Assembly: GCA_963676515.1 (NCBI GenBank) | Contig: OY781061.1 | Coordinates: 758,630 to 822,629, forward strand | Length of the DNA: 64,000 nt | Source of the DNA: Candidatus Cloacimonadota bacterium | Lineage (GTDB): Bacteria > Cloacimonadota > Cloacimonadia > G963667145 | Direction of reading: 5' to 3' | Shown: in pieces, positions 3,001 through 36,624 of the stretch | Numbering within the stretch: position 1 is the stretch's first letter | Layout of the letters: each line of letters begins with the position of its first letter | Notes under the pieces: generated by a model | Seen by the model: only the letters and a program-made list of their open reading frames with translations | Told to the model about the DNA's origin: nothing | Databases searched by the model: none | Program-made: the position numbers and the translations under genes

Positions 3001-6000
3001 TATGCTCTCATATAGTAGTAATAGTCCGTACCCAAGAGGCAATCCTCGTCTGACCAAGTATAGTTGTATTTGTTTACATCCACCGCCATCGTATAGACAG
3101 GATCTCTTTCTGGATCATCGTAGGCAGTTTTCCGATAGATGTAGAAACTATCGATATTCTTGATGTAATCTTGCTCGTATTGCCATTCTAGTGTTATCGA
3201 ATCTTCTCCGTATGGTGTCGCTCCGATGAGATAAGGAGGCAGCAACCTAGCATAAGCGACGATCTTTTCTGTCGGAGCTGAGCTAAGATAGCGAGGATGT
3301 CTGGCAGTGATAGTGTAAGTAAAGCAAACGCCCTCTTCTACATTCGTGGTGTCGCAGAAGCAGCCTGTATCTGAGAGGATTTTATATTCGGGGGTATAGT
3401 CCCTAGAAATAATATACTCTACCTCTTCGTTTCTACCGTGAGGCAACTCTTGCTTTGACCAGCGAAGAGTAATCGTGTCTGAGTTTTCGCCTATAGATGA
3501 GAACTCAACCTCTGGTGTCCTGAGCTTGTACCAGCCAGAGTCCAGAGCACTAAAAGCCGAAGAAATTTGTATCGCCTCGTCAAAATAGCAACTCTTGGCT
3601 TTGAAGTAATACATCGTAGCTGGAGCAAAATTCTGATTGTCTCTCGTGTTTATCATCAGATAGCCACTGGCAAGCTGACTATACTGTTTCTCCAAAGAGA
3701 GAAGCGATGTCCAATCATCTGCTGGCTCAGAGACGGTGTCGTAGTAAATGTCCAGCTTGTTTACTCTGCTGAATTGCTGAGCATTGGTATCCCAAGATAT
3801 CTTGATAGAGTCCGTCATCAATCCATCTTGCTCGTTGTCCACCGTAATCTCTAGTGGCTTAAGAGTAATCCAGCCGTAGTCACTCCATCCACTCCAGTCC
3901 GAGTAAATTGTTGCTTTCTTGCTCCTGACGCGATAGTCGTAGATGTAGCCATCGCTACTATTCAAACTGTTGTAGTCCTGCACCTTAATGGTGATACTGT
4001 CGGCAGATGAAGCATCTACGCTAAATCTGGTTTCATCATAGTCCACATCAAAGGTGTCTCTATCCTCTCTTGCTCTACGCACTATTTCATAGTTATCCAT
4101 ACCTGTCAGATTGTCAAAGGCTTTGAATGTGAGTGTGATGGTGTCTGTGCTCGTGCCTTGTGAGGCTCTGACATCCATAGGTGTAGTCAGTGCGATGTAG
4201 CCTGGATCACTGTTTGCTGTCTCTTTGTCGCCCTCTTTTGCCTCGGTGAAAGCTCGCACCCTAAAGTAGTAGCGAACTCCGACTTCCAACTTGCCGCCCT
4301 CTATAGACTCCTCGTATACATGGCGATCATCTGTGCTGGCAGGTCTTATCGTGTCCATCACACCGTAATCTAGCAGATTGTTGCTCTGGGCAGTATCTAT
4401 GATGTATCCTTCGACTTTCGTGAGGTTGTCCCAAGATATCACCACTTTATCGTGATATTCTCCATCGGTAGCTTCCACATTTTGTGGCACTGGCACAGAG
4501 ATATAGCCCGAGTCTATATCAGAGTAGTTTTTTTGCTCTTCGCCAAAAGTTACCGTTAAGTCATTTACAGCCAAGGCTTTGTAATAATAAATTTTACCGT
4601 AAATCAAATCGTCTATCGGGTCTTTGTATAGCAGTTCTGATGTTGTATTTATTTGTGCCCACTGAGAGGTAGTATCATCTGTTCTCCATACTTCGTAATA
4701 GTCTGCATTAGGAACGAGTGACCAGTTCAGACGGATAGTGTCTTCTAAATCACCTTTGGTCGCATTGAATCCTCCCACTTTGTCCAGCTGGGTGTATCCA
4801 GAATCTTGCTCCCCGTAACCATCAGAAGGCTGTAATTGCACCACAGAATTGTTTGCCCGCAACCTGAAATAGAATATCTCCCCTCTGTTAGATTCAATTA
4901 TATTCTTTAGAGTGTAAGAGTCTCCTATATCTGCTCTCGTGGTACTCCAGCTACCGGCAACTGCATCTTTTTGTAAATACTGCAAATTGTAATAGTCAGC
5001 GTTGGTATATGGTTGCCAGTCTATGCGGATAGAGTCCAAATAGTCGCCTTTGCTCACATATTTTATTTCCACGCCATCGAAGAGAGCAAACCCAGAGTCT
5101 GTGCATATCGTAGATTCTGTAGATGATGTGCCAAAGTCGGCGTCATAGAACCTCACTCCGAAGTAAATATACTTTCCTTGCTCACTTTCATCTTCTATCT
5201 CTACAGAGTATTGCGTGCCTTGCAGCGATATCAGCTGATTGTCCCACAGTGTAGCGAGTGTGTCGCTTTTATAAATCTGGGTAGTATAGTTTTTGGGGTT
5301 TTCCCATTGCAAGTAGATCGAGTCTGTGGCAAGTCCATCGCTAGCACTGAACCCCAAAGGAGTCGGCAGAGCCAGCCAGCCTGTAGCAGAGTCTGCACTC
5401 ATTAACGAGGAGTGAGCCACCGTCATATCGCCACTGGCAGCCATCATCGCTCTCACTTGATAGGAGTATTTGTGCTTTTCTTCTAGCTTCGCTGTCACAG
5501 CGTTTTGAGTCAAGATGATAGTATCGCCAGAGATAGTCATATCCCCCGGAGATAATATCTGCGTAGAGTCCACTATGCCTGTGGTCTCATCCTTCTGATA
5601 GACTCGGTAAGAGACCAAATCGTCGTGCTGATATGCATCGGACTTCTTCCACTTGACTACAATCTTCTTCTCATAGTCGCCTGTGCTAGCAGAGACCATA
5701 TCGGGAGTGGAAATGCGAGCATATCCTATAGCTGTGCCCGAGAGTGCCGAGTAATTGCCAGCACTAGAACGAAAGTTTACGCTCCCGTTTACATTCACTG
5801 CGAAGATATAACGGCGTCCTCTTTTGATGCCAAACCACTCATTTCCTGTTGTATATTTCGCCCCAACCTCTACGGTAAACTCAGGAGCTGTCGGTGGTAA
5901 ATCTGTGTAGTTTGCATCATTATTCCCTGTAATTCTCTTGCCCTCTTCAGGTTTGTCTTTAGTTAAATCAAAATCGTTAGAATTTAGAATGCTGTCGGTA

Positions 6001-9000
6001 TAAACATTATAGCTTATATCTGTTAAAGAAGCACTCTGCATGCCATCCCAAGAGACGACTATCTTGTCCTCGTACTCTCCATTTGTAGCTTCTATATTCT
6101 CTGGTGGCAAAAGCGGAGTCGTGATTGTCATAGTATCGCTATAGTCAGACATCCCTGTGATGTCTTTGTAAAATCTCACGCTGTAAGCATAAGTTGTCAT
6201 CATCATCAAGAATTTATTGTCCTCGAAGAAGCCTGGTACTCCTTGCCCTTCGTTAGGCCTCACGGCTACACTATATCTCTCATTTTGGCTTTCAGCCACT
6301 TCACGATAAAAGAAGATCGAATCCACCCAATCGTTCGGACAGGAGTAGCTGACTTTCACATATGAGCCGATAGTCAGTAAAGACGATATCACATCATCTA
6401 CCTCTGGAGTAGGCATCTTGGTGTATAGCGGCAACCACTCCGACCACGCAGAGTAACCGTATGTAGCTCTCTTTGAGCGTATGCGGACAGAATTATACTT
6501 AAATCTATCTGCCTCTTCTACAAAGATGGAGGTGTCTTTCGTCGTGCCGGGTATATCCTCGATGGTGTTTGCCACGGCTTCGCCTATCTTGTAGTCTATC
6601 TCATAGGTGATACTGTTCGGACTCAGCTCGCAGGGGTCTTCCCATGTCATACGGATGGAGTCTTCTATCAGAGCATACTCTCCGTCTTGGGCGGTGTATT
6701 TCACGAACTCTGGAGCGGGTATCTCTGCCCAACCAGAGTCTAGCATGCTCATCTCGGACTCTTGGGCTCCTACTTTGGCTATCAAGCCGTAATAGAACAT
6801 CTCGCCTATCTTCCTGTCGTCTAGGGCGTCCGTATAGCTCAGAGTCTTTTGGCTGTAGCCATCCCAGTCGCTTGGCTCTATATTACCGATGTAGTTCATC
6901 AGCTCTACGCTGTCACTCTCGCCTCTGTACACCAGATATTTAGTAGCTCCGTAGCTCGGGTTCGAGAGATTTTGAGGTGCATTCCACGAGACGATGATGG
7001 TGTCTTGCACATCGCCCTTGGTAGCTTCCACTCCATCGGGTGCCAAAAGCTGTGCTATACCGATGCACTCGTCCGACCAGTCAGATTTTTCGTTCTCGCA
7101 ATTTTCGTTGAGTGCTCTCACTTGGTAAACATACTTATGCCCTGTGAAAATGCCCACGACATCTTCCAAGCTCGTTGTTGTTACCGTTTGGTATGTCGTG
7201 TCTTCTTTGCCTGAGAAGTCGAAAGCTCGTTTCACTTCAAAACTTTTGGCAGCACTCGGTGTTGTCCATTCCAGATAGATAGCCATTATAGAGTCTTTCG
7301 TTATCTTAGTTACATACGGTGCAGGTGTCTTTGCCCATCCGTAATAAGGCTTACCTTCCTCTTGTTGCGAGAGTGGCGACCACACACCGTTTGGTGTCGT
7401 CTGCGTCCTGATCCGATAATAATATTTTGTTCCGGGGTGAAATTTACCAGCAGTGGCATTCACGGCGTTGTGCAGATAGAAGTAATGTGACTTACTGTTA
7501 TCTTCCACTTCTAGAGTGTCATACACATTTGTACCGTCGTTGTAGTCAGCGGCAGTTTGGTAAACGAATATCTGGAATCTGAGCTCATCGCCTGTAGGCA
7601 ATGATGGCCACGCAAGCCTAACATCCGAGAGATAAGTTCCCTTACTGACGGTGTCGAAGGTGATGGATGGTATGTCTATGTAGGTGTCAACCGTAACAAA
7701 TTCAGAGTTTTGCTCTATCCCTGTCGAGCCGACTCTGTTGGCTTGTGCTCTGTATTCGTAGGTCTTGCCCACTTTTAGATTCGCGTGTGTATAGTTCCCC
7801 TCTGTAGATGAGAGTGTTGCTAGTGGTTGGTATGTAGCGGCTACCTTCACCTCCAGAACTGTGCTGTCGGAGTTTTGGGATGGATCCCAGCTAAGATTGA
7901 TAGAGCTACTGCTCGAGATAGGCGTAGCTGCGAAGTTGGCTACTGGATACAGCTTGGTATAGCCAGTGACGACCTCGCTCTTGCAGCTAGCTCCAAACTC
8001 TGCACTGACTCCCTTCACGAAGAACTCTATATCCGCTCCGACCTCTTTTGCGGTGACGGTGTATTTGTACTCTTGCGTTATATCCGAGAGTTCACCTCGC
8101 ACCATTGCATCTTCTATGCCGTCATCATCGTTGCCCTCTTTCCACACTTGGTACTCTGTTACATCGTCCACTACGATCAGAGTGTCCCAAGTAATCACGA
8201 TGCTGTCTATCAGCCCTCTGCTCGCTTCCACATTCACTGGTCCTGCTATAGCTAGCCAGCCTACATCATAGAGAGCTTCCCATCCTTCCGAAATCTGTGT
8301 GCCTTTTTGCACAGCGATACGATACTCATACTTTTGTCCATCAAGCAAGGTTTCTTTTTTCTCATCCACAAACCTATTTGTCTCTATAGAAAAGCTAGTG
8401 GTGTCAGCAGAGCTGGTAGCTCCCACTCTAGATCTCTCTACGAAATAGCTCTCTGCCACAGCGACAGAGTCCCATGTCACCACGATGCTATCTCTATATT
8501 TACCGTCCGTTGCCTTTATGTTGCTCACATTGGGCATCTTGGTGTAACCTGTAGCTAAGTTCCTTTTGTATTCGGTGCTGAGGTCGCTATAACCCGTCTG
8601 ACCGATGTCTCCCAAGAACCCTCTAATCTTATAGGTGTAAGAGAACCCCTTGGCTACATTGCCATCATCGAGATAGACCGTATCTCCTGTAGTGGAAAAT
8701 CTCAGCTCGCTTGTATCTTTGGTAAAAATAGCAGAATCGCCAGACTCTATGTATCTGCATATTTGGTACTTTTCGGCTTTAGTCACCGCATCCCATTGGA
8801 CTACGATTTTGTCGGCATACTCTGCTTTGCTCGCTTCCACATGCTCTGGTGGTGTCGGCATCGCATAGCCAAACACGCTATCGCACGATACTTTTACATT
8901 TGGATAATCTTCCGTGGCGACAGCTAGCCTGTAGTAGTAATAGTGGTTAGCTTTTGCTGTCGCGTCTGTCCACTGGCTTACATCTTGCAGTCCACTAAAC

Positions 9001-12000
9001 ATCGTTACCCAAGCAACCGAGTCTTCTTCTCGCCTAAGACCAATGCAATTAACTCTGTCTCCCTTGTTCGTCCATGTCAGGAGTACACTGTCCTTCAGTG
9101 CTGTCTCTTGCGGACCTGTCGCCAAGAAGTTCCTTACTGCTGTCAACTGACTATAGCCAGTAGTAGTGTCCGAATATTCAGACCAAGCAGCACTCAAATT
9201 TTCTTCTGGGTAAACTGAGTCTATCTCTCTTTCAGCTGTTTTGTTTATCACCCGCACTCTATAAATGTACTTTCGCCCTTCTAGGACATTGTCTACATCT
9301 GTGTAATCTCCGTTGTTACTCACATCCAAGGTGACTTCTTCATTGCCTGTATTGGTCCTGAGCATCTGGTAAGTCAAAACATCGTCGCCAGCTTCTATCG
9401 TGTTCCACTTTATTACTATCTTGTTGTCTTCGCCTTTGCTCGCTCCATCGCTAAAGGTCAATATTGGCAACTCCGTGAAGCCCGGCTTGAACTCCGTCAA
9501 GACTGACTCTCTACCCTCATTAGGTTTGTAGGTGCTCAAGGCGAAATAAACCACTTGCCCAGTATCTGCATCTATGCTGCTATCTGCTGTCGCACCTTCG
9601 TAAACTGGCACGCTATAGCACATATAGCCATCACCTCTGTCATCTGCATCGGCATCAGCGATATAACCAAGCAGTTTTTTTTGCCCATGCTTTGCTGTTT
9701 TGTAATAAATCCCATAATTCACTGCGGCAGCTTTGCTAAAATACAAGTTGATCGTGTCGTCTTCGGTGGCTAAACTTGCCCTATCGAAATCTGGTGGCTG
9801 CAGCGAAACCCAGCCAGTATCAATATTAGAGGTGACCTCAGCATGCTTTTTGGTAGCGTAATCTGCTCTATGAGAAACTATTTTATAGAGATACTCCTTT
9901 TCGCAGTCCAGCGTAGAGCTTTCATCGTAATAAGTATATTCTGTACTTCCATCATTGTCTTTGTTCTCTATGACTTCGTAATCATCAGCACCACCTACGA
10001 CTTTTCTACATACCTGATACTTTGTCGCTCCGCTATTTTTCAAAGTCTTCCACTGAAGCATTATCTTGTCGGCGTATTCATCCTTCCCTGCGGTCAAGCT
10101 ATACGCAGCATCGAGCTTCATATAGCCTTCTACTATATTACTCAGGTCTGACTCTCCCCAGCCCTCTTTGCTCGTAGTGACCGCAAACTGGTAAATCTTG
10201 CCATAAGTCAGTTTGCCCTCTTCGGGGTAGAGAGTCACTGTAGAGTCGCCCACTGCCACACTTGTACCTTCTTCCCAGCCGTCATTGCTATCGTAATCTT
10301 TGTAATAAACTCTGTAGCTTTCGTTAGATTTGGACTCCCAGTATAAGATAATTTTGCTATCTAGGTTGTGAGAAACAGAGTCCAGCACAGGGATAGTAAG
10401 GGCTGTCATCGCACTACTGCTTAGCTCTACTTTCCCCGATGTCTCGTAATCTCCAGTGCTCAAAAGGATGCTACTTTCTGTCTCTATTTGATACATATAT
10501 TCCGTAGCTGTCGCCAAGCCAGTATCTTTGTAAGTCACCGTCTCGCCTGAAACTTTCTCTATAAAGGCGTAGGCGTCTGTGGTATTTTTTAGTTTGCGAT
10601 ACAAGTTGTAATTTTGTGCATATTTCACAGGATCCCACTCCAGATCTACCCAGTCAGTATTAACACCCACTGATTTAAATCCATCCGGAGCAGCTATCTT
10701 GATCCAGCCAGAATCTATGTCAGAATCTTCACTCGACTCTACATCGTTCTTACTACGGATCTTGTAAATATATTTCACGCCTCTATCTATGCTGTATTCG
10801 TCTTGTGTTAAGGTCATATTTGTTAGCAAGGTGTCCGCTGTTATAGACGGCAATCTAGCCCAGTCTCCAGCCATGCCTTGCTTGTATATCACTATATAAG
10901 ACTTAGCGTTTTCTACTTTATTCCATCGTACCACCACCACACTATCTCCGCCTTTGGTAGCAGACATGCTAAATGGAGGCTCGATCGCAGCGTATCCCAC
11001 TTTTTCGGTAGAATAATCGGACTCTCCTATCACCTTGCCACCGTCGCTTTCGTACACTGTAGCCGAGTAATAATATTTTTTACCTGGCTCGACATTACTT
11101 ATCACACCGTCTTCCAGCGTAATTATCCCCATACCGCCAGAGGAAGCAACCGCACCAAGCACATCCGTCAGCTTGACGACCGTTTCAGAGTTCAACTCTC
11201 GTCTATAAAGTTGCACCACCAGATCTTGCCCTTCTTCTGGAGCTACAGTTTGGACCTTTATTCGGATAAACCCAATAGAATCTTGTGTCGTCGTCAAGAT
11301 AGTAGGCGTAGGATATTTAGTGTAACCTAAGTTAAAATAATAACCTTCTGGATTTTTATCGTTCTCTCCACTGTTAGCTCCCGTCTCCTTGCCATCTTTC
11401 ACACAAGTCACTTTGAAGCGGTAGTTTACACCTATTTCAGAATCCATCCATTCGTAAGCTCTATTCTCAAATTCGTCACTACCATCTATTACTTCTGTTA
11501 CAGGTGTATAGCTCGTTTCGCTCTCTTTTTTCACATAGATTATATAACCCTCTATGCCATAGACTTCATCCCATGTAATGCGGATCTTGTCACTATAGTC
11601 TCCCTTACTGGCATATACATTCTCTGGCGACTCTACACTCGTCCATCCAGAGTCCAGTGCCGTCATCTCCGAAGATTTCTCGCCCTCATCCACGATCACT
11701 ATCTGTGTCTTGAAATAGTAAATCATCCCTTTGAGAATGTCGTCTTCCAGCTCCATGCCTTCACTGTTCTTGAGCTCAGACAAAGATATCGACACCTCAT
11801 TCTCTGTCACATTTTTGCTATCCGTGGAGTAATATATCATCGCATTGCCCAGCAAACTTTGCTCTGCAGCTACTTTGATCCTATCGGGGACATTCCAAGA
11901 GATACCGATCTTCTTTGGAAAGATACCCTTGGTAACTTCGACATTATTTAGAGTAGGAATCTCCAGCCATCCTATAGCTGGAGTGGAACGAGGCAGAGAT

Positions 12001-12347
12001 TTGGTCGTTCCTCGCACAGAACGCACCTTATAATAATACGCTTTACCCGGAGCCAACTGCAAATCGCTATCCACATAGCGAGTAGCCTGCACTTGCCCTA
12101 TGGAATAATAATCCTCGGCAAAGTTGCTGGAGTTTATCGACGCCCTGTATATCTCGTAATCGGAGACACCCGTTACCGAGTTCCACTCGATGACGATCTG
12201 TTCCTCGTATACACCCTGTGTCGCTGCAGCAACTGGGCTAGAAATTGTTGCTTCCATTTCTGTGGTACATCCCACGAAAAGGGATACAAACAACAATAAA
12301 GCTAGTAGAACTTTTTTTATTTTTTTCTGCCTACTATAAGCTTCCAT
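1..12347 (-). CDS. Giant surface lipoprotein with tandem Fn3/Ig-like beta-sandwich repeats (partial; the 3' end lies beyond the window start)
   Basis: ATG at 12347-12345 (minus) with AGGAGA 6 nt upstream. The N-terminus MEAYSRQKKIKKVLLALLLFVSLFVGC is a signal peptide plus lipobox Cys. Hand translation of the reverse complement shows a continuous open frame to base 1 (at least 4115 codons). The ORF track lists no other minus-strand ORF between 304 and 12534, which is what an unterminated giant ORF would produce. About 85-90 aa units recur, with motifs such as ATKGDYxDKIxVxW...YxVYR...YYYxVxA. Confidence 0.8.
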   Translation of the reverse strand, partial: MEAYSRQKKIKKVLLALLLFVSLFVGCTTEMEATISSPVAAATQGVYEEQIVIEWNSVTGVSDYEIYRASINSSNFAEDYYSIGQVQATRYVDSDLQLAPGKAYYYKVRSVRGTTKSLPRSTPAIGWLEIPTLNNVEVTKGIFPKKIGISWNVPDRIKVAAEQSLLGNAMIYYSTDSKNVTENEVSISLSELKNSEGMELEDDILKGMIYYFKTQIVIVDEGEKSSEMTALDSGWTSVESPENVYASKGDYSDKIRITWDEVYGIEGYIIYVKKESETSYTPVTEVIDGSDEFENRAYEWMDSEIGVNYRFKVTCVKDGKETGANSGENDKNPEGYYFNLGYTKYPTPTILTTTQDSIGFIRIKVQTVAPEEGQDLVVQLYRRELNSETVVKLTDVLGAVASSGGMGIITLEDGVISNVEPGKKYYYSATVYESDGGKVIGESDYSTEKVGYAAIEPPFSMSATKGGDSVVVVRWNKVENAKSYIVIYKQGMAGDWARLPSITADTLLTNMTLTQDEYSIDRGVKYIYKIRSKNDVESSEDSDIDSGWIKIAAPDGFKSVGVNTDWVDLEWDPVKYAQNYNLYRKLKNTTDAYAFIEKVSGETVTYKDTGLATATEYMYQIETESSILLSTGDYETSGKVELSSSAMTALTIPVLDSVSHNLDSKIILYWESKSNESYRVYYKDYDSNDGWEEGTSVAVGDSTVTLYPEEGKLTYGKIYQFAVTTSKEGWGESDLSNIVEGYMKLDAAYSLTAGKDEYADKIMLQWKTLKNSGATKYQVCRKVVGGADDYEVIENKDNDGSTEYTYYDESSTLDCEKEYLYKIVSHRADYATKKHAEVTSNIDTGWVSLQPPDFDRASLATEDDTINLYFSKAAAVNYGIYYKTAKHGQKKLLGYIADADADDRGDGYMCYSVPVYEGATADSSIDADTGQVVYFALSTYKPNEGRESVLTEFKPGFTELPILTFSDGASKGEDNKIVIKWNTIEAGDDVLTYQMLRTNTGNEEVTLDVSNNGDYTDVDNVLEGRKYIYRVRVINKTAEREIDSVYPEENLSAAWSEYSDTTTGYSQLTAVRNFLATGPQETALKDSVLLTWTNKGDRVNCIGLRREEDSVAWVTMFSGLQDVSQWTDATAKANHYYYYRLAVATEDYPNVKVSCDSVFGYAMPTPPEHVEASKAEYADKIVVQWDAVTKAEKYQICRYIESGDSAIFTKDTSELRFSTTGDTVYLDDGNVAKGFSYTYKIRGFLGDIGQTGYSDLSTEYKRNLATGYTKMPNVSNIKATDGKYRDSIVVTWDSVAVAESYFVERSRVGATSSADTTSFSIETNRFVDEKKETLLDGQKYEYRIAVQKGTQISEGWEALYDVGWLAIAGPVNVEASRGLIDSIVITWDTLIVVDDVTEYQVWKEGNDDDGIEDAMVRGELSDITQEYKYTVTAKEVGADIEFFVKGVSAEFGASCKSEVVTGYTKLYPVANFAATPISSSSSINLSWDPSQNSDSTVLEVKVAATYQPLATLSSTEGNYTHANLKVGKTYEYRAQANRVGSTGIEQNSEFVTVDTYIDIPSITFDTVSKGTYLSDVRLAWPSLPTGDELRFQIFVYQTAADYNDGTNVYDTLEVEDNSKSHYFYLHNAVNATAGKFHPGTKYYYRIRTQTTPNGVWSPLSQQEEGKPYYGWAKTPAPYVTKITKDSIMAIYLEWTTPSAAKSFEVKRAFDFSGKEDTTYQTVTTTSLEDVVGIFTGHKYVYQVRALNENCENEKSDWSDECIGIAQLLAPDGVEATKGDVQDTIIVSWNAPQNLSNPSYGATKYLVYRGESDSVELMNYIGNIEPSDWDGYSQKTLSYTDALDDRKIGEMFYYGLIAKVGAQESEMSMLDSGWAEIPAPEFVKYTAQDGEYALIEDSIRMTWEDPCELSPNSITYEIDYKIGEAVANTIEDIPGTTKDTSIFVEEADRFKYNSVRIRSKRATYGYSAWSEWLPLYTKMPTPEVDDVISSLLTIGSYVKVSYSCPNDWVDSIFFYREVAESQNERYSVAVRPNEGQGVPGFFEDNKFLMMMTTYAYSVRFYKDITGMSDYSDTMTITTPLLPPENIEATNGEYEDKIVVSWDGMQSASLTDISYNVYTDSILNSNDFDLTKDKPEEGKRITGNNDANYTDLPPTAPEFTVEVGAKYTTGNEWFGIKRGRRYIFAVNVNGSVNFRSSAGNYSALSGTAIGYARISTPDMVSASTGDYEKKIVVKWKKSDAYQHDDLVSYRVYQKDETTGIVDSTQILSPGDMTISGDTIILTQNAVTAKLEEKHKYSYQVRAMMAASGDMTVAHSSLMSADSATGWLALPTPLGFSASDGLATDSIYLQWENPKNYTTQIYKSDTLATLWDNQLISLQGTQYSVEIEDESEQGKYIYFGVRFYDADFGTSSTESTICTDSGFALFDGVEIKYVSKGDYLDSIRIDWQPYTNADYYNLQYLQKDAVAGSWSTTRADIGDSYTLKNIIESNRGEIFYFRLRANNSVVQLQPSDGYGEQDSGYTQLDKVGGFNATKGDLEDTIRLNWSLVPNADYYEVWRTDDTTSQWAQINTTSELLYKDPIDDLIYGKIYYYKALAVNDLTVTFGEEQKNYSDIDSGYISVPVPQNVEATDGEYHDKVVISWDNLTKVEGYIIDTAQSNNLLDYGVMDTIRPASTDDRHVYEESIEGGKLEVGVRYYFRVRAFTEAKEGDKETANSDPGYIALTTPMDVRASQGTSTDTITLTFKAFDNLTGMDNYEIVRRAREDRDTFDVDYDETRFSVDASSADSITIKVQDYNSLNSSDGYIYDYRVRSKKATIYSDWSGWSDYGWITLKPLEITVDNEQDGLMTDSIKISWDTNAQQFSRVNKLDIYYDTVSEPADDWTSLLSLEKQYSQLASGYLMINTRDNQNFAPATMYYFKAKSCYFDEAIQISSAFSALDSGWYKLRTPEVEFSSIGENSDTITLRWSKQELPHGRNEEVEYIISRDYTPEYKILSDTGCFCDTTNVEEGVCFTYTITARHPRYLSSAPTEKIVAYARLLPPYLIGATPYGEDSITLEWQYEQDYIKNIDSFYIYRKTAYDDPERDPVYTMAVDVNKYNYTWSDEDCLLGTDYYYYMRAYKDGMTISDTSAVKMASLELLTPSLSYTDKGVDTGQITIKWYGTKDAKEYVILRSENTEFDPSVIVDTVDGSPTQYLDDNNGVGLEDGTVYYYKVQAKRDQHLSSASSYRGGYTKLKKPKIVTISKNTPEIAMEWSREGGNEDSKARIFVGEGNEVVNPLDSISLKDSTTDDLIGRFSSSDWFVEGKEYYTKLKTYITKTTVMTAGGGTEVFEICSDFSLAKKFYSSIAQPDLKLYNGKLDTLRVEWNRMDNDVVSDVVVQWTADGFGSSADIMETSFVNNGADSSGILERSESEEQRLLPGKKYYFRIRFQRSEVLSDWSDIVEGWLKLPAPINFTATKGKYADSIRFTWDNYLEDTDTALDQTSRYVIYYDNGSESVQLANGAVTNKDDFYDITLSMEGTLTRGIMTQFQIRGETPSGSELPFQTEELSQDSGHTRLMLPASSANLTKDEDNQIVLSWTTELTDDGDVLKAYQDLDVRYQIQRRESANAFTESILKSIDSLEWEEYTDSKDLTPSKVYYYRMRFYSQEYYNDYNNMDKSSSPWYDIPDSGTIKVNPPEIEQLRDGDFYTDKVNLNIRRSTGADSVLLYREDNNQGNSHIIDTIIFDDNVTAYKGWLTYVDTKDILSGSMYKYYGVAYAKERYSKNGDPLTSYTKLQTPAWLTASDGKFSEMIVAEWDTVARADGYFIWISEDATGDLVDSAEVPSQDSTVNLVSASISNVEIGKKYRFAIAAWNSRCYYDGQRVYSDVSSDIGYLKFYSPEHVTLSQDSVGFVKLQIGYDDPGFELEVYRSADTATVNNTENDWGSYNKISPSDKKYDAAKTEYVCKDILSSTEGKDGVQYAYMVQVYQSGMKDAISDTFKTWLENESGEKKGWNQAGLYDNEIVATQGTYQDSIVVVWEKSGDESFVDGIKYMWVEYDLQTSDVAQDSGTTDDTCLVRYAQSKESSQKVKNGNKYIYKLKKIFYDESSQAYTTSEVSDESATGWAKMEKPEIRLTTT

Positions 12348-12699
12348 ACAGTGTCTCCTTCTTTATAAAATCGTGCAAGTTAAACGCATTTTTAAACATT
12401 TTTGGCATTTTTGGTAAATTTCCTATCTCTTTATAAAATAATATAGTTATCACTACTACTCCGACCTCTTTCACTCATTTTAGGGGTACAAAACACGCCC
12501 ATACTATCCAAGCTGGTCTTCCGTGTAGTTTTTGTCAAATATTTTTTAATCTTTTACCCACATCTCGTATTTTACCCAAAAACAAGCAAATACGGACAAC
12601 GAAAAAGAAGTAATCCACACAAAGACAACACTTTATCCACAACAAAACCAGCACAAAAAAACAAAAAAAAAGAAAAGAAGTAAACAAAACTAAATAAGA

Positions 12700-12744
12700 A
12701 AAATTACTGAAAAACAAATAAATGTTTCAATTTTCAGTAATTTT
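12700..12744. terminator. Perfect 14-bp inverted repeat (aaaattactgaaaa / ttttcagtaatttt) with a 17-nt loop, flanked by A/T tracts. It could be a bidirectional terminator or an operator, about 350 nt upstream of the giant gene.
   Basis: The palindrome is read directly from the sequence. U-rich flanks are present on both strands. Confidence 0.4.
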
Positions 12745-12949
12745 CTTTTATCCATTTAACTTTTTGTTTTCCAGTTAGATATGCACTTAGATTTTTTTTG
12801 CTTTTTTTTTCTGTTTTTTTAAACTACAAGAGAATAAAGAGTAAGAAATTGTCGTTTTTTTTCATAAATGGGCAAAAATAGCAATTTTTAATTGATAATA
12901 GAGGATTTCTACTTTTCTCTTTTAGAAACCTACTTTGTTAAAATCTGCT

Positions 12950-13625
12950 CTCCTGACGACAGATTCCCTCATCCTCACGAAAGCTAAGAACCAAAACCAC
13001 AGATGGACACGGATTTCCTCATCCTCGCGAAAGCGGGGATCCAAAGGCGGGCTAGTGATGGCGGTTCTCTCTCGCTAGGCGGGTGGGGTTTCCTCCGCTT
13101 CACGGGCAGAGCCAGAAACACAGTCAGTCGTCTTTGGCACTGCAAAGCCAACAATCGAAAATGCACAGCTAAGAACAAATCTCGGAGGTGCTCTCCACCA
13201 CGGACAACCTACACACCTCACGCCATATCTCCGGAGGATTGAAGCGGAGCGGTTTTCTTTTCTCCTCCAATCTGACCACATAAATGAAATCTCAAATGAT
13301 TAGCTATATTTATGTGGTCAGGGCGGGAAACAAGGTGTGGGAGTGGCTAGTAAATAATTAAAACAGAAAGCGTAAAATTCGTTTACCGCCCAAAGCTACG
13401 CTGACGACGAAGTGCTATATCACCTATGAAAGACAAAATGCGATTCATAGCACGAGGCTGACAGCGTGCGAGGAAGGTTTAGAATTTAGCTTGCTGATTT
13501 GGTATTTTGACTTTACCTTTTGTTACTTTTCGCTTTGGTCAACCAAAGGGAAAAGTAAGACCCTCCGTCAGGAGGCCAGCTAAAAGAATGGATTCCTGCT
13601 TCCGCAGGAATGAGGAATGGTGGTA
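12950..13625. repeat. Mosaic hairpin-rich intergenic repeat, copy 1 (module order A', A, B, C, D, E)
   Basis: It shares long near-identical segments with 36625-37111 (direct) and 35255-35470 (inverted). It contains a GNRA-loop hairpin (atcctcgcgaaagcggggat), a long module-C hairpin (acgctg..gtgctat..atagcac..cagcgt), the module-D hairpin (ttacttttc..ctttggtcaaccaaag..gaaaagtaa) and the module-E hairpin (attcctgcttccgcaggaat). The copy is bounded by ctcctgacg at 12950 and cgtcaggag at 13565. Confidence 0.75.
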
Positions 13626-13634
13626 GCACGATAC

Positions 13635-13671
13635 AAAAAGAGGTCAAAGCAAAAGCTCTAACCTCTTTTTT
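13635..13671 (-). terminator. Hairpin with an A tract before and a T tract after, immediately 3' of the EamA transporter gene
   Basis: aaaaagaggt..(loop)..acctcttttt; the stem is agaggt/acctct. Confidence 0.5.
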
Positions 13672-13685
13672 AAAACCATCAATTT

Positions 13686-14627
13686 TTAGTCACTCTGGCT
13701 CATGAGAGCTTTTTCCCTATCCCGCACGATGAAAGAGAGTGCCAACAGAAGCACAGCACAACCTGCTAGTTGCACAGTGTTTAGCGTATTTCCATTGATG
13801 AAGTAATCCAAAACTATCGCCGTGAGTGGCCAAAAAAGCTCGAAGAGCGTGGCGATAGATGCGGAGATTTTCTTGAGACCGAAGTAGTAGAGGAAAATCG
13901 CTCCTGCTCCGCTGGTGCAGAGGATCAGCCCGAAAAGCAGCCAGTGGGAGAGAGTAAAGCTTTGTGTTTGCACGATTTGCCCCGAGACACAGATGTAAAG
14001 CAAGGCTATCAAGGCGGTGAACCCAAATCGCAATGAGGTAGCCGCTTTGAAATCCAGATCGCTGACGATCCGCTTGCCAAAAACCGTAGAAGAGCCAAAA
14101 CTAAAAGCTGCTATCACTGCAAAAAAAGCTGCGTTGTGTGTCAGATCCAGATCTTGCCAATTTAGCCCGTGTTTGCCGAAAGCGATAAAATAAGTGGCGA
14201 AAACAGCCACCATTGCCCAGAGGTAAAAAACTTTCCCCATTTTTTCTTTGAGGAGCAAACGAGCGATCAAGATGGCAAAAATTGGTTGCAGTTTTTGCAG
14301 GACGACCACAGTCGCAAAAGAGATTTCTCCGTTGACAGCGGCAAAAAAAGCTTTGGTGATGAACAAAGTGCCCAAAAAGCCTCCTAAGAGGCAAATCCAG
14401 CCTATTGCCAGCCAATCTCTTTTTTGCAGTGCTGCAATCTCTCGAAAATATTTTATGCCGAAAGGGAGCATAATTATCGCTCCGAAAAAATGCTCCCAAA
14501 AAACCACCAACGCTGGGGGAAATCTGTAAAACTGAGGACGGATGAAAACTCCGTCGGCACTCCACATAGAAGCTGCCAAACCTACCGCCAAGCAGCCAAT
14601 TATCAACTGCAAATTTTTCTTGTTCAT
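13686..14627 (-). CDS. EamA/DMT-family membrane transporter
   Basis: 313-aa ORF made of hydrophobic helices throughout, with the overall EamA-like duplicated 5-TM character. Confidence 0.6.
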   Translation of the reverse strand: MNKKNLQLIIGCLAVGLAASMWSADGVFIRPQFYRFPPALVVFWEHFFGAIIMLPFGIKYFREIAALQKRDWLAIGWICLLGGFLGTLFITKAFFAAVNGEISFATVVVLQKLQPIFAILIARLLLKEKMGKVFYLWAMVAVFATYFIAFGKHGLNWQDLDLTHNAAFFAVIAAFSFGSSTVFGKRIVSDLDFKAATSLRFGFTALIALLYICVSGQIVQTQSFTLSHWLLFGLILCTSGAGAIFLYYFGLKKISASIATLFELFWPLTAIVLDYFINGNTLNTVQLAGCAVLLLALSFIVRDREKALMSQSD

Positions 14628-18178: not shown

Positions 18179-18194
18179 CTACTAAAAAACGCTC

Positions 18195-18335
18195 TACAAC
18201 TTCTCTCATCTAGACTTTAACTATCGGTCTTGGATTTGCACCAAATCAATCTTGCTCAAAGACAAAACTCGCGGACTATTACCGCCGGTCGGGAATTTCA
18301 CCCTGCCCTGAAGTGTTTATTTATAGACAAAGGAA
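18195..18335 (-). promoter_or_regulatory. FMN riboswitch (RFN element) upstream of ribD
   Basis: The minus strand reads GGGCAGGGTGAAATTCCCGACCGGCGGTAATAGTCCGCGAG...GGTGCAAATCCAAGACCGATAGTTAAAGTCTAGATGAGAGAAG, which is the conserved RFN core, upstream of a rib operon. Confidence 0.9.
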
Positions 18336-18390: not shown

Positions 18391-20019
18391 TCAAAGTCGG
18401 TTTGACAATTGCAACTCTTTTACTGCTATCTCTCTCATTTCCACTTTGCGGATTTTACCCGTAATAGTCATAGGAAATTCACTCACAAACTTCCAGTAGT
18501 GAGGGATTTTGTAACTGGCTATCTGACCTTTGCAATAGGCTCTAAACTCCTCTTCCGAGACATTACCAGAGTCTTCTTTAAGGATAACCCACGCCATTAC
18601 CCGCTCACCATATTTTTCGTCTGGCACACCGATAACCTGCACATCATAGATTTTGTCGTGATTCCGCAGATACTCCTCGATCTCGTGAGGCGAAATATTC
18701 TCACCGCCACGGATTATCATATCCTTAATTCTTCCCACAATCTTGATGTATCCACTTTCGTCCATCTCCGCCATATCCCCAGTGTGCATCCAGCGACCTT
18801 CATCGATCACTTTCGCTGTAGCATCTGGGCTGTTCCAATATTTGAGCATCACAGAGTAGCCACGAGTGCAAAGCTCCCCGCGAGTATTTCTGGGAACGAC
18901 CTTTTTCGTCTCAGGGTCTATTATTTTTATTTCCAGATGAGGATGCACTTTGCCCACAGTGGCACACCTTCTTTGCTCGTTATCGTCCAAAAAGGTTTGC
19001 GTACTCACTGGAGAAGTCTCTGTCATCCCATAGCATATGCCCACATCTTTCATATTCATTTTCTCTCGAATATCACGCATAACAGATTCGGGACATTGCG
19101 AACCAGCCATAATGCCTGTCCTTAAACTGGAGAAGTCGTAATCATCTATTTCGGGGAGATTTAACTCGGCAATAAACATAGCAGGCACTCCATAGAGTGA
19201 AGTTATCTTCTCATCCTGAACAGTTTTTATCACAGTCAGTGGGTCAAAAGCTTCGCCCGTAAAAACCATGCAGCAACCATGGGAAGTACACGCTAGATTC
19301 CCTAACACCATGCCAAAGCAGTGATAGAGCGGAACTGGTAGACACACACGATCATTTTCCGTATACTTTAAACGCTTTCCAATAAAATACCCGTTGTTCA
19401 AAATATTGTGATGTGAAAGAGTTGCCCCTTTGGGAAATCCTGTCGTGCCGCTGGTGTATTGGATATTGATCGGTTCATCAAACTCCAGATTAGCCTCGAT
19501 AGCCTCTATCTGCTCATTGGTGATTTTTTTGCCCACGGCGATTAGTTTGTCCCAGTCGTGCTCTATTACCAAGATGTCTTGTAAATTGACACACGAAGAC
19601 CTTACTTCGTTGAGTATCTCGATATAATTCGTCTTCCGAAACCCTTTTGACATAATGAGCAGTTTGGTTTCCGATTGCTTCAAGGCAAATTTTAGCTCTT
19701 GAGCTTTGTAGGCTGGGTTCACATTAACCATAATCGCACCCATGCGAGCCGTGGCATACTGAAGGATAACCCACTCAAAACGGTTGGGCGACCAGATTCC
19801 CACTCGATCACCTTTCTTTATCCCGTAGGCAATCAGTCCTTTAGCAATTTCACTAATCTGATCCCAAAACTCGCTGTAGGTAGCACGATAATTTTGGTAA
19901 GGAACTACCAACGCCTCTCTGTTGGGAAATTTCTCCACTGTCTTTTTTAGATTCTCCGATATGGTCTCACCCAGCAATGGTATTGAGCTTAAACCTTGTT
20001 CATACGATTTTTTTTTCAT
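18391..20019 (-). CDS. AMP-dependent acyl-CoA synthetase/ligase
   Basis: 542 aa; AMP-binding motifs (YTSGTTGFPKGA and the GE/GW-containing central region) of the fatty-acid-CoA ligase family. Confidence 0.75.
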   Translation of the reverse strand: MKKKSYEQGLSSIPLLGETISENLKKTVEKFPNREALVVPYQNYRATYSEFWDQISEIAKGLIAYGIKKGDRVGIWSPNRFEWVILQYATARMGAIMVNVNPAYKAQELKFALKQSETKLLIMSKGFRKTNYIEILNEVRSSCVNLQDILVIEHDWDKLIAVGKKITNEQIEAIEANLEFDEPINIQYTSGTTGFPKGATLSHHNILNNGYFIGKRLKYTENDRVCLPVPLYHCFGMVLGNLACTSHGCCMVFTGEAFDPLTVIKTVQDEKITSLYGVPAMFIAELNLPEIDDYDFSSLRTGIMAGSQCPESVMRDIREKMNMKDVGICYGMTETSPVSTQTFLDDNEQRRCATVGKVHPHLEIKIIDPETKKVVPRNTRGELCTRGYSVMLKYWNSPDATAKVIDEGRWMHTGDMAEMDESGYIKIVGRIKDMIIRGGENISPHEIEEYLRNHDKIYDVQVIGVPDEKYGERVMAWVILKEDSGNVSEEEFRAYCKGQIASYKIPHYWKFVSEFPMTITGKIRKVEMREIAVKELQLSNRL

Positions 20020-20357
20020 AAATCCCTAACCAATTTTTAATTGCTTTTTCAAAATTTTTATTATTTAAAAGATAAAACCAAGCTTTTTGCTCCCCTGTCA
20101 ACGGTTTTAAGTGGTTCTTTCCTGCGGTTGGACTAATTGTTTTTTTTTGGCTAGCTTATTTTGCCTTGACAGTAAATTTGAGTTATTGTGTTTAGGCTAC
20201 AGATGAGTTGTTTTAATAAAACGAGAGAGTTAATGATTTTGAAGGGAAGGTATAGATAATGAAGATAGCATGCCAAATAAGGAAGATATAGATAATGAAC
20301 ATAGCAAGTAGTTATTCGTCATTTTTTTGAAAATATTTTAGAACTGGAGTAAATACT

Positions 20358-20450
20358 ATGAATATGAGAAATTTCGTTGCAGTTAACAAATCAACTCTTG
20401 AGAATTATTCTAATGTTGAGGCTTCACCATTCTCTATCTTTGAAATATGA
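20358..20450 (+). CDS. Small ORF (30 aa) with GGAG RBS. It is in frame with the next small ORF across a TGA.
   Basis: ATG 20358; TGA 20448-20450. The next ATG at 20475 is in the same frame. Confidence 0.25.
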   Translation: MNMRNFVAVNKSTLENYSNVEASPFSIFEI

Positions 20451-20474
20451 CCAAATGGAGGACAGACCATTGTA

Positions 20475-20615
20475 ATGGCAGTTGCAGCGGATGGAAATGA
20501 ACAAATTGAAAAAAATAAGTTTGGTATCGGTATAGATTTTAATACAGCATGCGATAATTTTATTTCTGATCTCAAGAAAATCTTGGACAATACATATAAA
20601 ATTAATGAATTCTAA
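20475..20615 (+). CDS. Small ORF (46 aa) with GGAGGA RBS
   Basis: MAVAADGNEQIEKNKFGIGIDFNTACDNFISDLKKILDNTYKINEF; its stop overlaps the RBS of the next gene. Confidence 0.3.
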   Translation: MAVAADGNEQIEKNKFGIGIDFNTACDNFISDLKKILDNTYKINEF

Positions 20616-20627
20616 AATTAAAGGAGA

Positions 20628-21002
20628 ATGAAAATGGATTATAAATGGAACAAGGTTATTAACGCTGGCCAAAAAGCAATTGGATATATTGATATTTATG
20701 AAACAAATGCCAAAGGGATCGATATTAGAGCGATTGTTAACTTTTACCCAAATATAGAACAATTTGGAGATAATCGGATATGTAATACAACAATTTTATA
20801 TTCTTGTTCTAAAAGTGATATTACTGATGCATTTTTTCATTTTATTAACGATGATATTATTAAATTAATACAAGGTGAAGAAACTGAGAAATTTGATTCA
20901 ACAACTAAAAAGTTTGAACTGATGATGACTCAACAGTTCTTTGTAAAGGAACTCCCTGAAATGGATTACTTTACTCACGGAGATTATTCAGCAGAAGGAT
21001 AA
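20628..21002 (+). CDS. Hypothetical protein (124 aa) on the low-GC island
   Basis: Strong AAGGAGA RBS; no recognisable motif. Confidence 0.4.
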   Translation: MKMDYKWNKVINAGQKAIGYIDIYETNAKGIDIRAIVNFYPNIEQFGDNRICNTTILYSCSKSDITDAFFHFINDDIIKLIQGEETEKFDSTTKKFELMMTQQFFVKELPEMDYFTHGDYSAEG

Positions 21003-21032
21003 ACTTTAACCACAAAAAAACGACGTATAACA

Positions 21033-21097
21033 GCGAGTACCCGCTACGCTTCGCTCCGTCCAAATTGCTCCCTTCGGTCGCAACTTCGGGTACTCGC
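21033..21097. other. GC-rich hairpin (11-bp stem gcgagtacccg / cgggtactcgc, 43-nt loop) inside the AT-rich island
   Basis: The inverted repeat is read directly from the sequence. Its GC content contrasts sharply with its surroundings. Confidence 0.4.
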
Positions 21098-21183
21098 GGA
21101 ACATTGGGCACAATACAAGAAAAAAAACAGCATAGTTAGATGAAATACTTTACCTTTGCGATTAGACTTTAAATAGAATATTT

Positions 21184-21972
21184 ATGATTAAAATAGAACG
21201 ACTAAAAAAAGCCGATTTAGTGCATTATTGTCAGCAAATAGGCATTGATACAAAAGACAAAAACAAAGATATATTAATTGAAGAAGCTGTTAATTATGGC
21301 AATAATGAAATAACACAAGCATTGAAGAATAATAATGGTATTGAACTACTAACAACTAAAATAGAATGTCTTGCTGAAGATTATTCATCTAACTTAGATT
21401 TGAAAATTTCAGATAGAAAAGCTGAAATGAAAAAAGACGATAATTCTCACTATTTAATTTATCGAGTTTTGGGAATTACACAAGAAGATGGTCGCTTGAT
21501 TGATGAATATCAGAATACTGGACGTTTTTTATATAAATATGCAGGTTCATTTCTTGAAGAGGCAGCTTCTCTTTGTCTGAAATTTAAGAATATAAATGGA
21601 GGAAAAACCCTAATCGATAATAACCAAGGTAAGAAGCCTAAGACATTTGAAATTGACTTTTTGGATGGCAATGATGCTATCGAGATAAAATGGAGAGACG
21701 CAACAACGGACGGTGACCATATTACAAAAGAACACACTAGAGTAAAAGCAATAGAAAGTCAAGGTTATACACCTATTCGTGTTATGTTTTATTATCCTCA
21801 ACGTGAACAAGCAAAGAGAATACAAGCAACTCTTAAAACTATCTATGAAGGTGTTAATGGCAGCTATTTTGCAGGTGACGATGCTTGGACTTTCATTGAG
21901 AGTCATAGTGGCTATAACTTAAAAAAAATATTAACAAAAATTGCAGATAAAAGAACACCACTTAATGGATAA
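21184..21972 (+). CDS. Type II restriction endonuclease (PD-(D/E)xK fold)
   Basis: 262 aa; FEIDFLDGNDAIEIKWRD gives a D...EIK catalytic motif. Its stop overlaps the start of the adjacent methyltransferase (ATGGATAA). Confidence 0.6.
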   Translation: MIKIERLKKADLVHYCQQIGIDTKDKNKDILIEEAVNYGNNEITQALKNNNGIELLTTKIECLAEDYSSNLDLKISDRKAEMKKDDNSHYLIYRVLGITQEDGRLIDEYQNTGRFLYKYAGSFLEEAASLCLKFKNINGGKTLIDNNQGKKPKTFEIDFLDGNDAIEIKWRDATTDGDHITKEHTRVKAIESQGYTPIRVMFYYPQREQAKRIQATLKTIYEGVNGSYFAGDDAWTFIESHSGYNLKKILTKIADKRTPLNG

Positions 21973-23173: not shown

Positions 23174-23224
23174 ATAATATGGCAATGAGGCTGTTACTCC
23201 ATTTTCAGTGGTTTCTAGCAGCTC

Positions 23225-35179: not shown

Positions 35180-35192
35180 TCTCAGTATCTTG

Positions 35193-35226
35193 CTGGCGAG
35201 CTTTCTGGCTCGCCAGTTTTGTTTTT
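35193..35226 (+). terminator. clpB intrinsic terminator
   Basis: ctggcgagc-tttctg-gctcgccag followed by ttttgttttt. Confidence 0.85.
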
Positions 35227-35254
35227 CGCTCTTCTCTTTAAAGGTGTCCGCCTA

Positions 35255-35470
35255 CAGCGGATTACTTTGTCACTTTTCCCTTTTGATGAAAAAAGCGAAA
35301 AGTAACACAAAAGGTAAATTCAAAATACGAAATCAATTAGCTAAATTCCTAAACCATCCATCTCACGCTAATACTGCTCGTGCTATGAATCACTTTTGTT
35401 CTTTTTTTGGTGATATAGCACATCGCAATTAGCGTAGTTCAGTCGGTATAAGTAATTTTACGCTTCTTGA
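35255..35470. repeat. Mosaic hairpin repeat, copy 3 (inverted copy of modules D and C)
   Basis: The reverse complement aligns along its length with 13395-13580 and 36880-37111. The outer stem of module C has changed from acgctg/cagcgt to gctaat/attagc, a compensatory change. Confidence 0.75.
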
Positions 35471-35587
35471 TTTGAGTATTTCCTTGGTGGCTTCTGGGGA
35501 TTTGTGTCAAATACTTGAAAAACCACATGTGGTATGCCTAGTTTGAGCGGGCTAAAGCCCTTGAGTTTACTGCTAAACGACAATTAT

Positions 35588-36430: not shown

Positions 36431-36624
36431 AACAATCCACTCCCCTCAACATGTCTCACACACTTCCATATTGGCACAGTATGCGAACGCTTTGTTCGGT
36501 TATTCTCTATTCCTTCGCATAATCTTTTCATCTATACCCTCTCGCTCTTTCCCGCATAATAGCTGTTCCTATTTCCTGTCAATCAAAATAAGTTACGCCC
36601 GAAATTTGGAAATTCATAGATAAA

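Follow-up and report, generated by a model that had tools for sequence, protein, structure and literature searches.

The 64,000-nucleotide stretch of a Candidatus Cloacimonadota genome analysed here, referred to throughout as the window, contains a 1.34-kb gap between the gene for an EamA transporter (EamA-1; 13686-14627, minus strand) and the beginning of a giant lipoprotein gene rich in fn3 domains (3-12347, also on the minus strand), and this gap is occupied at about 12935-13630 by a block of hairpins. The block, array 1, is a mosaic whose modules recur within the window at 36615-37220 (array 2) and, inverted, at 35246-35483, as well as in five related closed Cloacimonadales genomes of about 1.55 Mb (G1 to G5; loci from the relatives carry L numbers). 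On balance we favour the view that these are lineage-specific, non-coding hairpin-repeat modules gathered in mosaic arrays of 0.3-1.5 kb, of the same kind as arrays of repetitive extragenic palindromes (REP) and bacterial interspersed mosaic elements (BIME), and closest to the Neisseria intergenic mosaic elements (NIME). We file the family as a system that works like REP, BIME and NIME arrays, and not as a member of the Neisseria family.

Hairpin modules of two intergenic arrays

The original prediction, made from the letters of the window, had proposed hairpin modules that recur at 36625-37111 and, inverted, at 35255-35470. This is borne out by blastn, in which 13323-13588 aligns with 36854-37125 (78% over 273 nt, E 7e-52), 13349-13556 with the reverse complement of 35272-35484 (79%, E 4e-41), module A (13016-13051) with 36837-36872 (92%) and module E (13585-13623) with 36718-36756 (90%). 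Likewise, module B is inverted in array 2, as had been claimed, 13017-13136 matching the reverse complement of 36615-36748 at 70%. All of the hairpins named there fold, and the paired changes reported between copies are real: cctgc/gcagg against cccgc/gcggg in E, acgctg/cagcgt against acgctaat/attagcgt in C, and GTAA against GTGA in D. The inventory of array 1 was correct as far as it went, yet modules F, G and h belong to it too, each of which turns up independently in other genomes, and the hairpin C of about 90 nt, although present, is just the apical tip of a rod of about 160 nt. D, G, E and the h-type hairpin beside the third core copy fold far better than shuffles (z -3.2 to -6.2), and A (z -1.9, both copies) and h of array 1 (z -2.2) do so marginally. 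The modules fall into two classes, short REP-like hairpins (E/A) and larger palindromic modules, of which a 217-nt core is the main one, along with G, h, K, B and F (Table 1).

A and E had been listed as separate modules. Both are present, but A is the reverse complement of E (79% by blastn), so that they make up a single hairpin family in two orientations. The E/A hairpin is GC-rich and 26 nt long, with an 8-bp stem and the consensus GGATTCCYGC-N4-GCRGGAATGAGG. Four copies lie in the window and 14 in the related loci, every one of them intergenic and with at most three per locus of 8-22 kb; the hairpin occurs, with compensatory stem variants, in five of the six genomes, and none was found in the G1 loci searched. 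The copies are single or form inverted doublets, often at array edges. Doublets are found in the window (36723-36748, plus, with 36838-36863, minus), in L018 (12948, plus, with 13036, minus) and in L019 (8869, plus, with 8922, minus); the other copies are singlets. The consensus of the dRS3 hairpin of NIME arrays is ATTCCCN8GGGAAT, a 20-bp hairpin (PMC1797815), and a hairpin of this form, ATTCCCNNNNNNNNGGGAAT, is found exactly at 36725-36744 of the window, three times in L015 and once in L019, while other E/A copies carry the compensatory variant ATTCCT..AGGAAT. Over 22 bases, window positions 36724-36745 (CATTCCCGCGGAAGCGGGAATC) agree with Neisseria RS3 (CATTCCCGCGCAGGCGGGAATC) at 20, both mismatches falling in the loop, and 100 shuffles gave no such match. 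The RS3 sequence is in turn the master sequence, ATTCCCGCGCAGGCGGGAATC, of a REPIN population tied to a Group 2 RAYT transposase (bioRxiv 10.1101/2021.07.10.451892). The claim that the family resembles no classic bacterial repeat therefore does not hold, given the REP/BIME and NIME architecture and the fit of E/A to dRS3.

Table 1. Repeat modules and associated features of the window, by position
Feature	Position	Strand	Evidence
A'', degenerate REP-like hairpin, an eroded member of the E/A family marking the outer edge of array 1	12967-12993	-	repeat search; blastn, 81% to 36838-36864
A, REP-like hairpin (GGATCCCCGCTTTCGCGAGGATGAGG), E-type on the minus strand; 8-bp stem, 4-nt loop	13017-13042	-	pattern search; fold; 79% reverse-complementary to E
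B, GC-rich module, inverted in array 2 (36615-36700); also in G1 arrays	13049-13136	+	sequence comparison
F, recurs in G2 (L002, L006/L012) in both orientations, 77-80%	13166-13273	+	sequence comparison
G, hairpin with 14-bp stem (CTGACCACATAAAT...ATTTATGTGGTCAG); recurs in G2, 82-94%	13272-13333	+	fold z -6.2
w1, core copy: rod ~13350-13508, linker 13509-13522, hairpin D 13523-13558	13350-13561	+	covariance-model match, 196 bits; fold; covariation
h, small GC hairpin (CCTCCTGACGGAGG)	13562-13575	-	terminator scan; fold
E, REP-like hairpin (GGATTCCTGCTTCCGCAGGAATGAGG); closes array 1, inverted relative to A	13590-13615	+	pattern search; fold
Self-complementary stretch between the EamA-1 stop (13686) and array 1, outside the repeat family	13635-13670		palindromic self-match, 78%
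h-type small hairpin beside w3, of other sequence than h but in the same position; terminator-like on the ClpB sense strand	35246-35262	+	terminator scan; fold
w3, core copy downstream of ClpB; syntenic G1 copy (L004 6754-6970) 96% identical	35267-35483	-	covariance-model match, 242 bits
B, inverted copy at the left edge of array 2	36615-36700	-	repeat search; blastn
E of array 2, REP-like hairpin; minus strand reads CATTCCCGCGGAAGCGGGAATC	36723-36748	+	pattern search; 20/22 bases as Neisseria RS3/dRS3
A of array 2, REP-like hairpin; inverted REPIN-like doublet with 36723-36748, 89 nt between	36838-36863	-	blastn; pattern search; fold
w2, core copy: rod, linker and D (D 37060-37095)	36882-37098	+	covariance-model match, 225 bits
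h of array 2, same family as 13562-13575	37097-37114	-	terminator scan; 37090-37127 similar to L008 1474-1511
K, hairpin with 9-bp stem (37192-37213); recurs in G1 (L008 6631-6702 and 715-784), 88-90%	37149-37220	+	sequence comparison; fold

Between the two hairpins of the array-2 doublet, 36749-36820 appears by eye to hold loosely repeated GGAATRATGGCTGGTG motifs; Tandem Repeats Finder reports no formal tandem array in this tail. The self-complementary stretch next to EamA-1 may be the intrinsic terminator of that gene, reading by eye as a hairpin with a T tail, and a terminator scan of 12300-13750 does not list it.

Covariation and constraint in the 217-nt core

The core consists of an imperfect rod hairpin of about 160 nt, with outer stems AAATAC..AAATCAA..AGC / GCT..TTGATTT.GTATTT, a conserved T-rich linker of 14 nt and a 36-nt hairpin, D, and the three always travel together (fold z-score -6.5). 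A covariance model of the core, which the original prediction had proposed as a check, retains pairing with double changes beyond shuffled and slid controls. In its alignment of 15 copies from four genomes (three from the window, seven from G1, four from G2 and one from G4), 93.4% of 899 pair cells are standard pairs and double-sided changes occur in 43 of 63 pairs, while none of 500 shuffles reaches these values and slid partners pair at only 38-51%. Given that a model-fitted alignment leans towards structure, the count was repeated with copies aligned by MAFFT on sequence alone and with pairs taken from the minimum-free-energy fold of one copy, w3. Pairing is then 84%, against 75% for shuffled and 38-49% for slid partners, and 34 of 74 pairs show double changes, against 19 and 10-15. 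Covariation is best supported in the outer rod helices and in D. Internal loops hold their position across copies that are only 50-80% identical, the unpaired stretches TTTTGAMTTTACCTTTTG (linker), GCGTGCGAGG and CGAG are kept, and the apical loop of the rod varies in sequence and length; three G2 copies are without a mismatch in 63 pairs. We find no conserved open reading frame across the copies, as had been stated, the longest stop-free stretches being short and of low complexity and the copies differing by indels. These results support structural selection, with stems kept by compensatory change.

Does this selection act on RNA or on DNA? The earlier proposal of selection on RNA or single-stranded DNA structure rather than coding is upheld by the covariation, the lack of coding and the constraint. 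Pair cells comprise 821 Watson-Crick pairs (91%), 19 G-U (2%), 9 A-C (1%) and 50 others, and structures derived from either strand are conserved equally, although the 'forward' strand has the somewhat lower minimum free energy in 10 of 11 copies in one comparison and in 14 of 15 in another. Neither the G-U and A-C counts (19 to 9) nor a symmetric fold test singles out one strand, and the pairing is compatible with RNA, with one strand of DNA in folded form and with a DNA palindrome. The 5' flanks of the core are unrelated between copies, so that there is no shared promoter upstream of it, promoter-like matches in scans are no commoner than in shuffles, and no U run follows D. Searches of Rfam 15 with the arrays of the window and with seven loci of the relatives, run at the gathering score and again with a cut-off of E <= 10, found no family that explains the modules: above the gathering score only an FMN riboswitch and a tRNA are matched, neither of them within an array, and the weaker matches are miRNA-type noise on hairpin D. 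A 6S-RNA-like rod, a retron msr/msd, an IS200/IS605 or IscB/TnpB guide RNA and a group II intron remnant were each considered and rejected, as there is no Rfam match and no adjacent reverse transcriptase, TnpB or IscB gene.

The arrays lie just past gene 3' ends, and in 10 of 15 core copies the D end faces a gene 3' end at a distance of 90-430 nt. Scans of the upstream gene's sense strand find terminator-like sites, namely h and E hairpins followed by T-rich tails, four and six times where 1.3 and 2.0 are expected. In array 1, h looks like a terminator because on the minus strand, the sense strand of EamA, the T-rich arm of D comes next.

Syntenic cores evolve several-fold more slowly than neutral sites. 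Between the window genome and G1, identity at four-fold degenerate sites is 57% for ClpB and 54% for EamA-1, and it is 73% in the non-coding DNA that precedes the giant gene, whereas the syntenic cores reach 96% (w3 and L004) and 87% (w1 and L017c). The first of these values needs caution. A tract comprising EamA-2 and the 3' end of PNPase (37338-38540) is 97-100% identical to L020 15433-16640 of G1 in a ClpB/PNPase background of about 84%, which indicates recent recombination between the lineages, and it ends about 120 nt from array 2 and 2 kb from w3. The nearby tract tempers a reading of the 96% as extreme purifying selection; the pair w1/L017c, at 87% against 54%, still supports constraint.

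A small clade and its intergenic hotspots

A 20-base apical-stem pattern was scanned over one genome per species and over metagenome and viral collections. Its only true matches are in two closed 1.56-Mb chromosomes of "Candidatus Cloacimonadales", G1 (OZ223280.1) and G2 (OZ245797.1); the other matches in genomes, metagenomes and viruses share nothing beyond the 20 bases and are due to chance. Searches with ClpB and EamA homologues define a clade of the window genome (a contig of 1,581,858 bp) and G1 to G5 (1.54-1.59 Mb each), beyond which the next relative has 63% ClpB identity, and the family was found only in this clade of closed genomes of about 1.55 Mb. Phage and plasmid BLAST searches with array 1 gave no match, a viral scan with linker plus D gave one AT-rich chance match inside a phage open reading frame, and an E-hairpin scan of the viral collection gave none. 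By exact-sequence look-up, neither of two window proteins is on record.

Three copies in 64 kb had been taken to imply many copies genome-wide, but counts point to roughly 5-10 cores per genome. The exact apical-stem pattern occurs three times in the window and just two and three times in the whole of G1 and G2, which makes the family low-copy, and besides its 15 full copies in the DNA searched the covariance model gives a weak match in G3. Modules are reused within the window and across G1, G2, G4 and G5, shuffled in order and orientation, and at the same intergenic site an array is present, absent or rebuilt between sister genomes. In an identity matrix the core copies group by locus across genomes (w3 with L004; w1 with L017a and L017c) and also by genome (three G2 cores at 95-97%, the G1 beta pair at 95%). 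The family is thus old and vertically kept, yet still duplicating, and recent intragenomic duplication is seen in L008, where segments of about 310 nt are repeated three times at 91-95%. Separately, a minor contig from the same sample as G2 (L013; 52x against 1241x) carries a perfect inverted duplication, 1786-2768 and 3669-4651, of an array and flanking genes around Bax1-I, explained either by a rare rearrangement or, as an artefact, by foldback of long reads.

The arrays sit in recombination-prone hotspots with defence, surface-protein and insertion sequence (IS) genes. Between EamA-1 and the giant gene, G5 is empty apart from a terminator and an AT-rich upstream region, the window genome has an array only, G3 has a few modules with IS256, and G1 has an array, a gene for a 760-aa secreted protein and a second array, the first overlapping the last EamA codons. 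From ClpB to PNPase (window 35180-38420), the window genome carries a core, a 280-aa orphan, an array and EamA-2; G1 a core, GmrSD and EamA-2; G2 arrays, an IS and a gene for a 777-aa secreted protein; G3 DarT/DarG and no arrays; and G4 a 40-nt spacer. The site between Bax1-I and an M20 peptidase gene holds in the window a low-GC (28%) gene for a 335-aa membrane-anchored orphan (25931-26938, no Pfam match), in G2 a repeat array of 983 nt, and in G3 restriction-type genes for a methyltransferase and GmrSD. The 760-aa (L017 12637-14919, G1) and 777-aa (L012 14449-16782, G2) proteins have signal peptides, are homologous (34% identity) and are encoded at different loci, each flanked by arrays; neither has a Pfam match above the gathering score, the 777-aa protein giving only a sub-threshold match to DUF4957 (E 5e-4, 20 bits). 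Further neighbours are DUF285/fn3 surface proteins and IS copies. Given that cargo without arrays and arrays without cargo both occur at the same sites, the link between them may be shared use of the few permissive, recombination-prone gaps that a compact genome offers.

Several observations concern the genes and junctions around the arrays. The giant lipoprotein gene runs off the start of the window, which holds its 5' part (4,115 codons), and the orthologous genes of G1, G3 and G5 encode about 11,000 aa each in genomes of only 1.55 Mb. EamA-1 is the last gene of a ribD-ribE-ribBA-ribH operon preceded by the FMN riboswitch (110 bits; 18194-18319, minus strand). In Patescibacteria many EamA homologues are fused to a flavokinase domain (PF01687), so that EamA may be a riboflavin transporter. 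In G1, module B of the array overlaps the final EamA codons (L017 10900-10950), giving a C-terminus unlike that of the window orthologue. Beside w3, a unique stretch of about 80 nt (35490-35569; L004 6977-7055) is 88% identical between the window genome and G1 though the gene beyond it has been replaced, the cargo-swap junction lying at about 35570. A module of about 100 nt immediately precedes the start codons of three genes, those for the 280-aa orphan, EamA-2 and the GmrSD of G1 (window 36495-36612 and 38243-38330; L020 15062-15171 and 16338-16425; copies 77-87% identical) and may be a portable promoter or 5'-leader module. Elsewhere in the window, about 3 kb at 20000-23200 have a GC content of 30-33%, against about 44% around them, with the GC skew locally reversed, and may be a foreign island.

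Likeness to known repeat systems and competing explanations

NIME arrays have been described as peculiar to Neisseria; they occupy syntenic sites with variable content beside surface-protein and variable genes, are invaded by IS elements and Correia palindromes, and mark the ends of recombination tracts (PMC1797815). The Cloacimonadales arrays likewise combine many kinds of module punctuated by the hairpin ATTCCCN8GGGAAT, with an identical stem, CATTCCCGCG..GCGGGAATC. They stand at syntenic intergenic sites, differ in length and content between relatives, have surface-protein and variable genes as neighbours, contain IS insertions and have recombination tracts ending alongside. They differ from NIME arrays in their host phylum, Cloacimonadota and not Betaproteobacteria, and in a far lower copy number. 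In Neisseria many families of RS elements, 19-214 bp long, are each flanked by dRS3. Here families B, F, G, core, h and K exist, yet array 1 has five modules between a single A/E pair, and the dominant constrained element of the family, the 217-nt double hairpin, is without a known Neisseria counterpart when compared by description.

Likeness to REP, REPIN-RAYT and BIME systems lies in short GC-rich extragenic palindromes with compensatory stem variation, which stand as singlets and inverted doublets behind genes, pass vertically from parent to daughter lineages with slow duplication, and have their closest sequence match in the Neisseria REPIN master. REPs are 20-40 nt long and number tens to hundreds per genome, REPINs are inverted REP doublets with a spacing below about 130 bp, and the cognate RAYT gene, for a Y1 HUH transposase, lies in the same genome flanked by the REP. 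Each 20-60 kb here holds just a handful of hairpins instead of hundreds per genome, and long palindromic modules of this sort are not seen in BIMEs. The rod, an imperfect palindrome over its whole length, recalls ERIC and Correia elements, the modular composition recalls the A/B/C type of pneumococcal BOX, and the 3' untranslated location and RNA-hairpin potential are shared with Correia/CREE, ERIC/IRU, RUP and BOX. Unlike these, the modules show neither target-site duplication nor a recent burst and have no terminal inverted repeats in common with an IS; identity between paralogues is 50-85%, and the rod is always coupled to linker and second hairpin. Tested as miniature inverted-repeat transposable elements (MITEs), the modules have no similarity to the IS copies in L008, L012 and L018, and no direct repeats are seen at core or array edges. 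Integron attC sites, such as the Vibrio cholerae repeats, are also species-specific imperfect palindromes at the 3' ends of variable genes, keep their structure by compensatory change and are thought to act as folded single strands. They differ in that the core lacks R''/R' boxes (RYYYAAC / GTTRRRY), its stem base reading AAATAC/GTATTT, has no adjacent integrase, forms no single co-oriented cassette array, is dispersed, and is longer.

How might such a system spread and act? A REP-associated transposase (HUH/Y1, RAYT-type) could have moved the short hairpins in the form of folded single-stranded DNA, and the larger modules would owe their spread and reshuffling mainly to recombination among scattered copies. 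Once in place, hairpins may act on the transcript of the upstream gene, as a terminator or by protecting its 3' end, and the arrays, as stretches of homology scattered over the genome, may make it easier for variable genes beside them to be exchanged. Several findings weigh against this interpretation. In about 250 kb searched (the window and 12 loci, some 85% of each genome lying outside) tblastn with E. coli RayT found nothing below E = 2, PF01797 is absent among the precomputed Pfam matches of the related loci, and no other candidate mobilising enzyme was found. Copy number is far below what classical REP and NIME systems reach, most modules are not each framed by the short hairpin in the way that dRS3 frames RS elements, and neither target-site duplications nor terminal inverted repeats common to a parent IS are seen. 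Cargo at hotspots without arrays (DarTG in G3, the 335-aa orphan in the window) indicates that arrays are not required for cargo exchange. In-place conservation of the core at 87-96%, with its conserved unpaired linker, exceeds what is expected of junk repeats and would also fit a dedicated RNA or protein-binding function, although the 96% could partly reflect recent recombination in the hotspot.

Such a function is the substance of one rival, which we hold to be unlikely: the 217-nt cores would be paralogous genes for structured small RNAs, or RNA elements that act in cis, such as antisense regulators transcribed towards the upstream gene or long double-stranded substrates of RNase III, and the other modules would be unrelated repeats gathered around them. 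The strong covariation in all helices, the unpaired linker, the slow evolution of syntenic copies, the strong fold, the lower free energy on the forward strand and several U-G pairs conserved in the w3-derived structure speak for it. The wholly different 5' flanks, the missing U run after D, the scarcity of G-U cells with pairing equal on both strands, the variable apical loop and the silence of Rfam even at E <= 10 speak against it, and a core that sits inside shuffling arrays, present or absent between sister genomes, would be unusual for a housekeeping small RNA. In a second rival, the hairpins would be single-stranded-DNA substrates of recombination, as in integron attC, in the folded attP of CTX-type phage and in the integration of filamentous phage into dRS3, and the almost purely Watson-Crick pairing fits a DNA substrate. 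The arrays might then be scars or ends of integrative elements, or attachment-site-like marks for insertion of defence and surface-protein cassettes. A 760-aa gene between two same-orientation cores in G1, the 280-aa orphan between inverted cores in the window, the 777-aa gene between two arrays in G2, hotspots rich in DarTG, GmrSD, methyltransferases and IS elements, and a tRNA gene adjoining one array fit this idea. We nevertheless consider it improbable, as no integrase or recombinase is consistently adjacent (only a 97-aa Phage_integrase fragment in L017), cargo and arrays occur without each other at the same sites, no GTTRRRY-type core sites are seen by eye at the stem bases, a 160-nt rod exceeds the length of attC, and no phage or plasmid matches.

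Least of all do we expect the modules to be neutral, decaying remnants of a MITE or REP burst, in which covariation would arise from hairpin-templated (quasipalindrome) correction and master-copy evolution. Pairs that are nearly all Watson-Crick with very few one-sided intermediates, the mismatch-free G2 copies and the absence of strand asymmetry in pair conservation are what such a process would leave. Templated correction, however, should erase the loops and bulges that stay fixed in place across the divergent copies, syntenic copies are far better kept than four-fold sites and neighbouring non-coding DNA, and orientation is biased relative to the upstream gene.

The interpretation we favour, that of hairpin-repeat modules in REP/BIME/NIME-like mosaic arrays, admits a bolder form, which we offer as speculation and think doubtful. 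A NIME/REPIN-type system, with the same 8-bp REP stem and by implication a related hairpin-specific transposase, would have arisen in or been transferred to a distant phylum, and the core would be an undescribed RNA or folded single-stranded DNA element under host-level selection that organises terminator or insulator function and cassette exchange at the few permissive intergenic sites of these streamlined 1.55-Mb genomes. The identical stem points either to a hairpin-transposase system that has crossed between phyla or to strong convergence on the same hairpin. If the arrays are merely selfish repeats, they add a neat but unremarkable entry to the known intergenic repeats of bacteria. The core, being well conserved and strongly covarying, is a reasonable candidate for a new structured element, and the uncultured Cloacimonadales offer a second, independent lineage in which to ask whether such arrays serve termination, transcript protection or gene exchange at defence and surface-protein hotspots.

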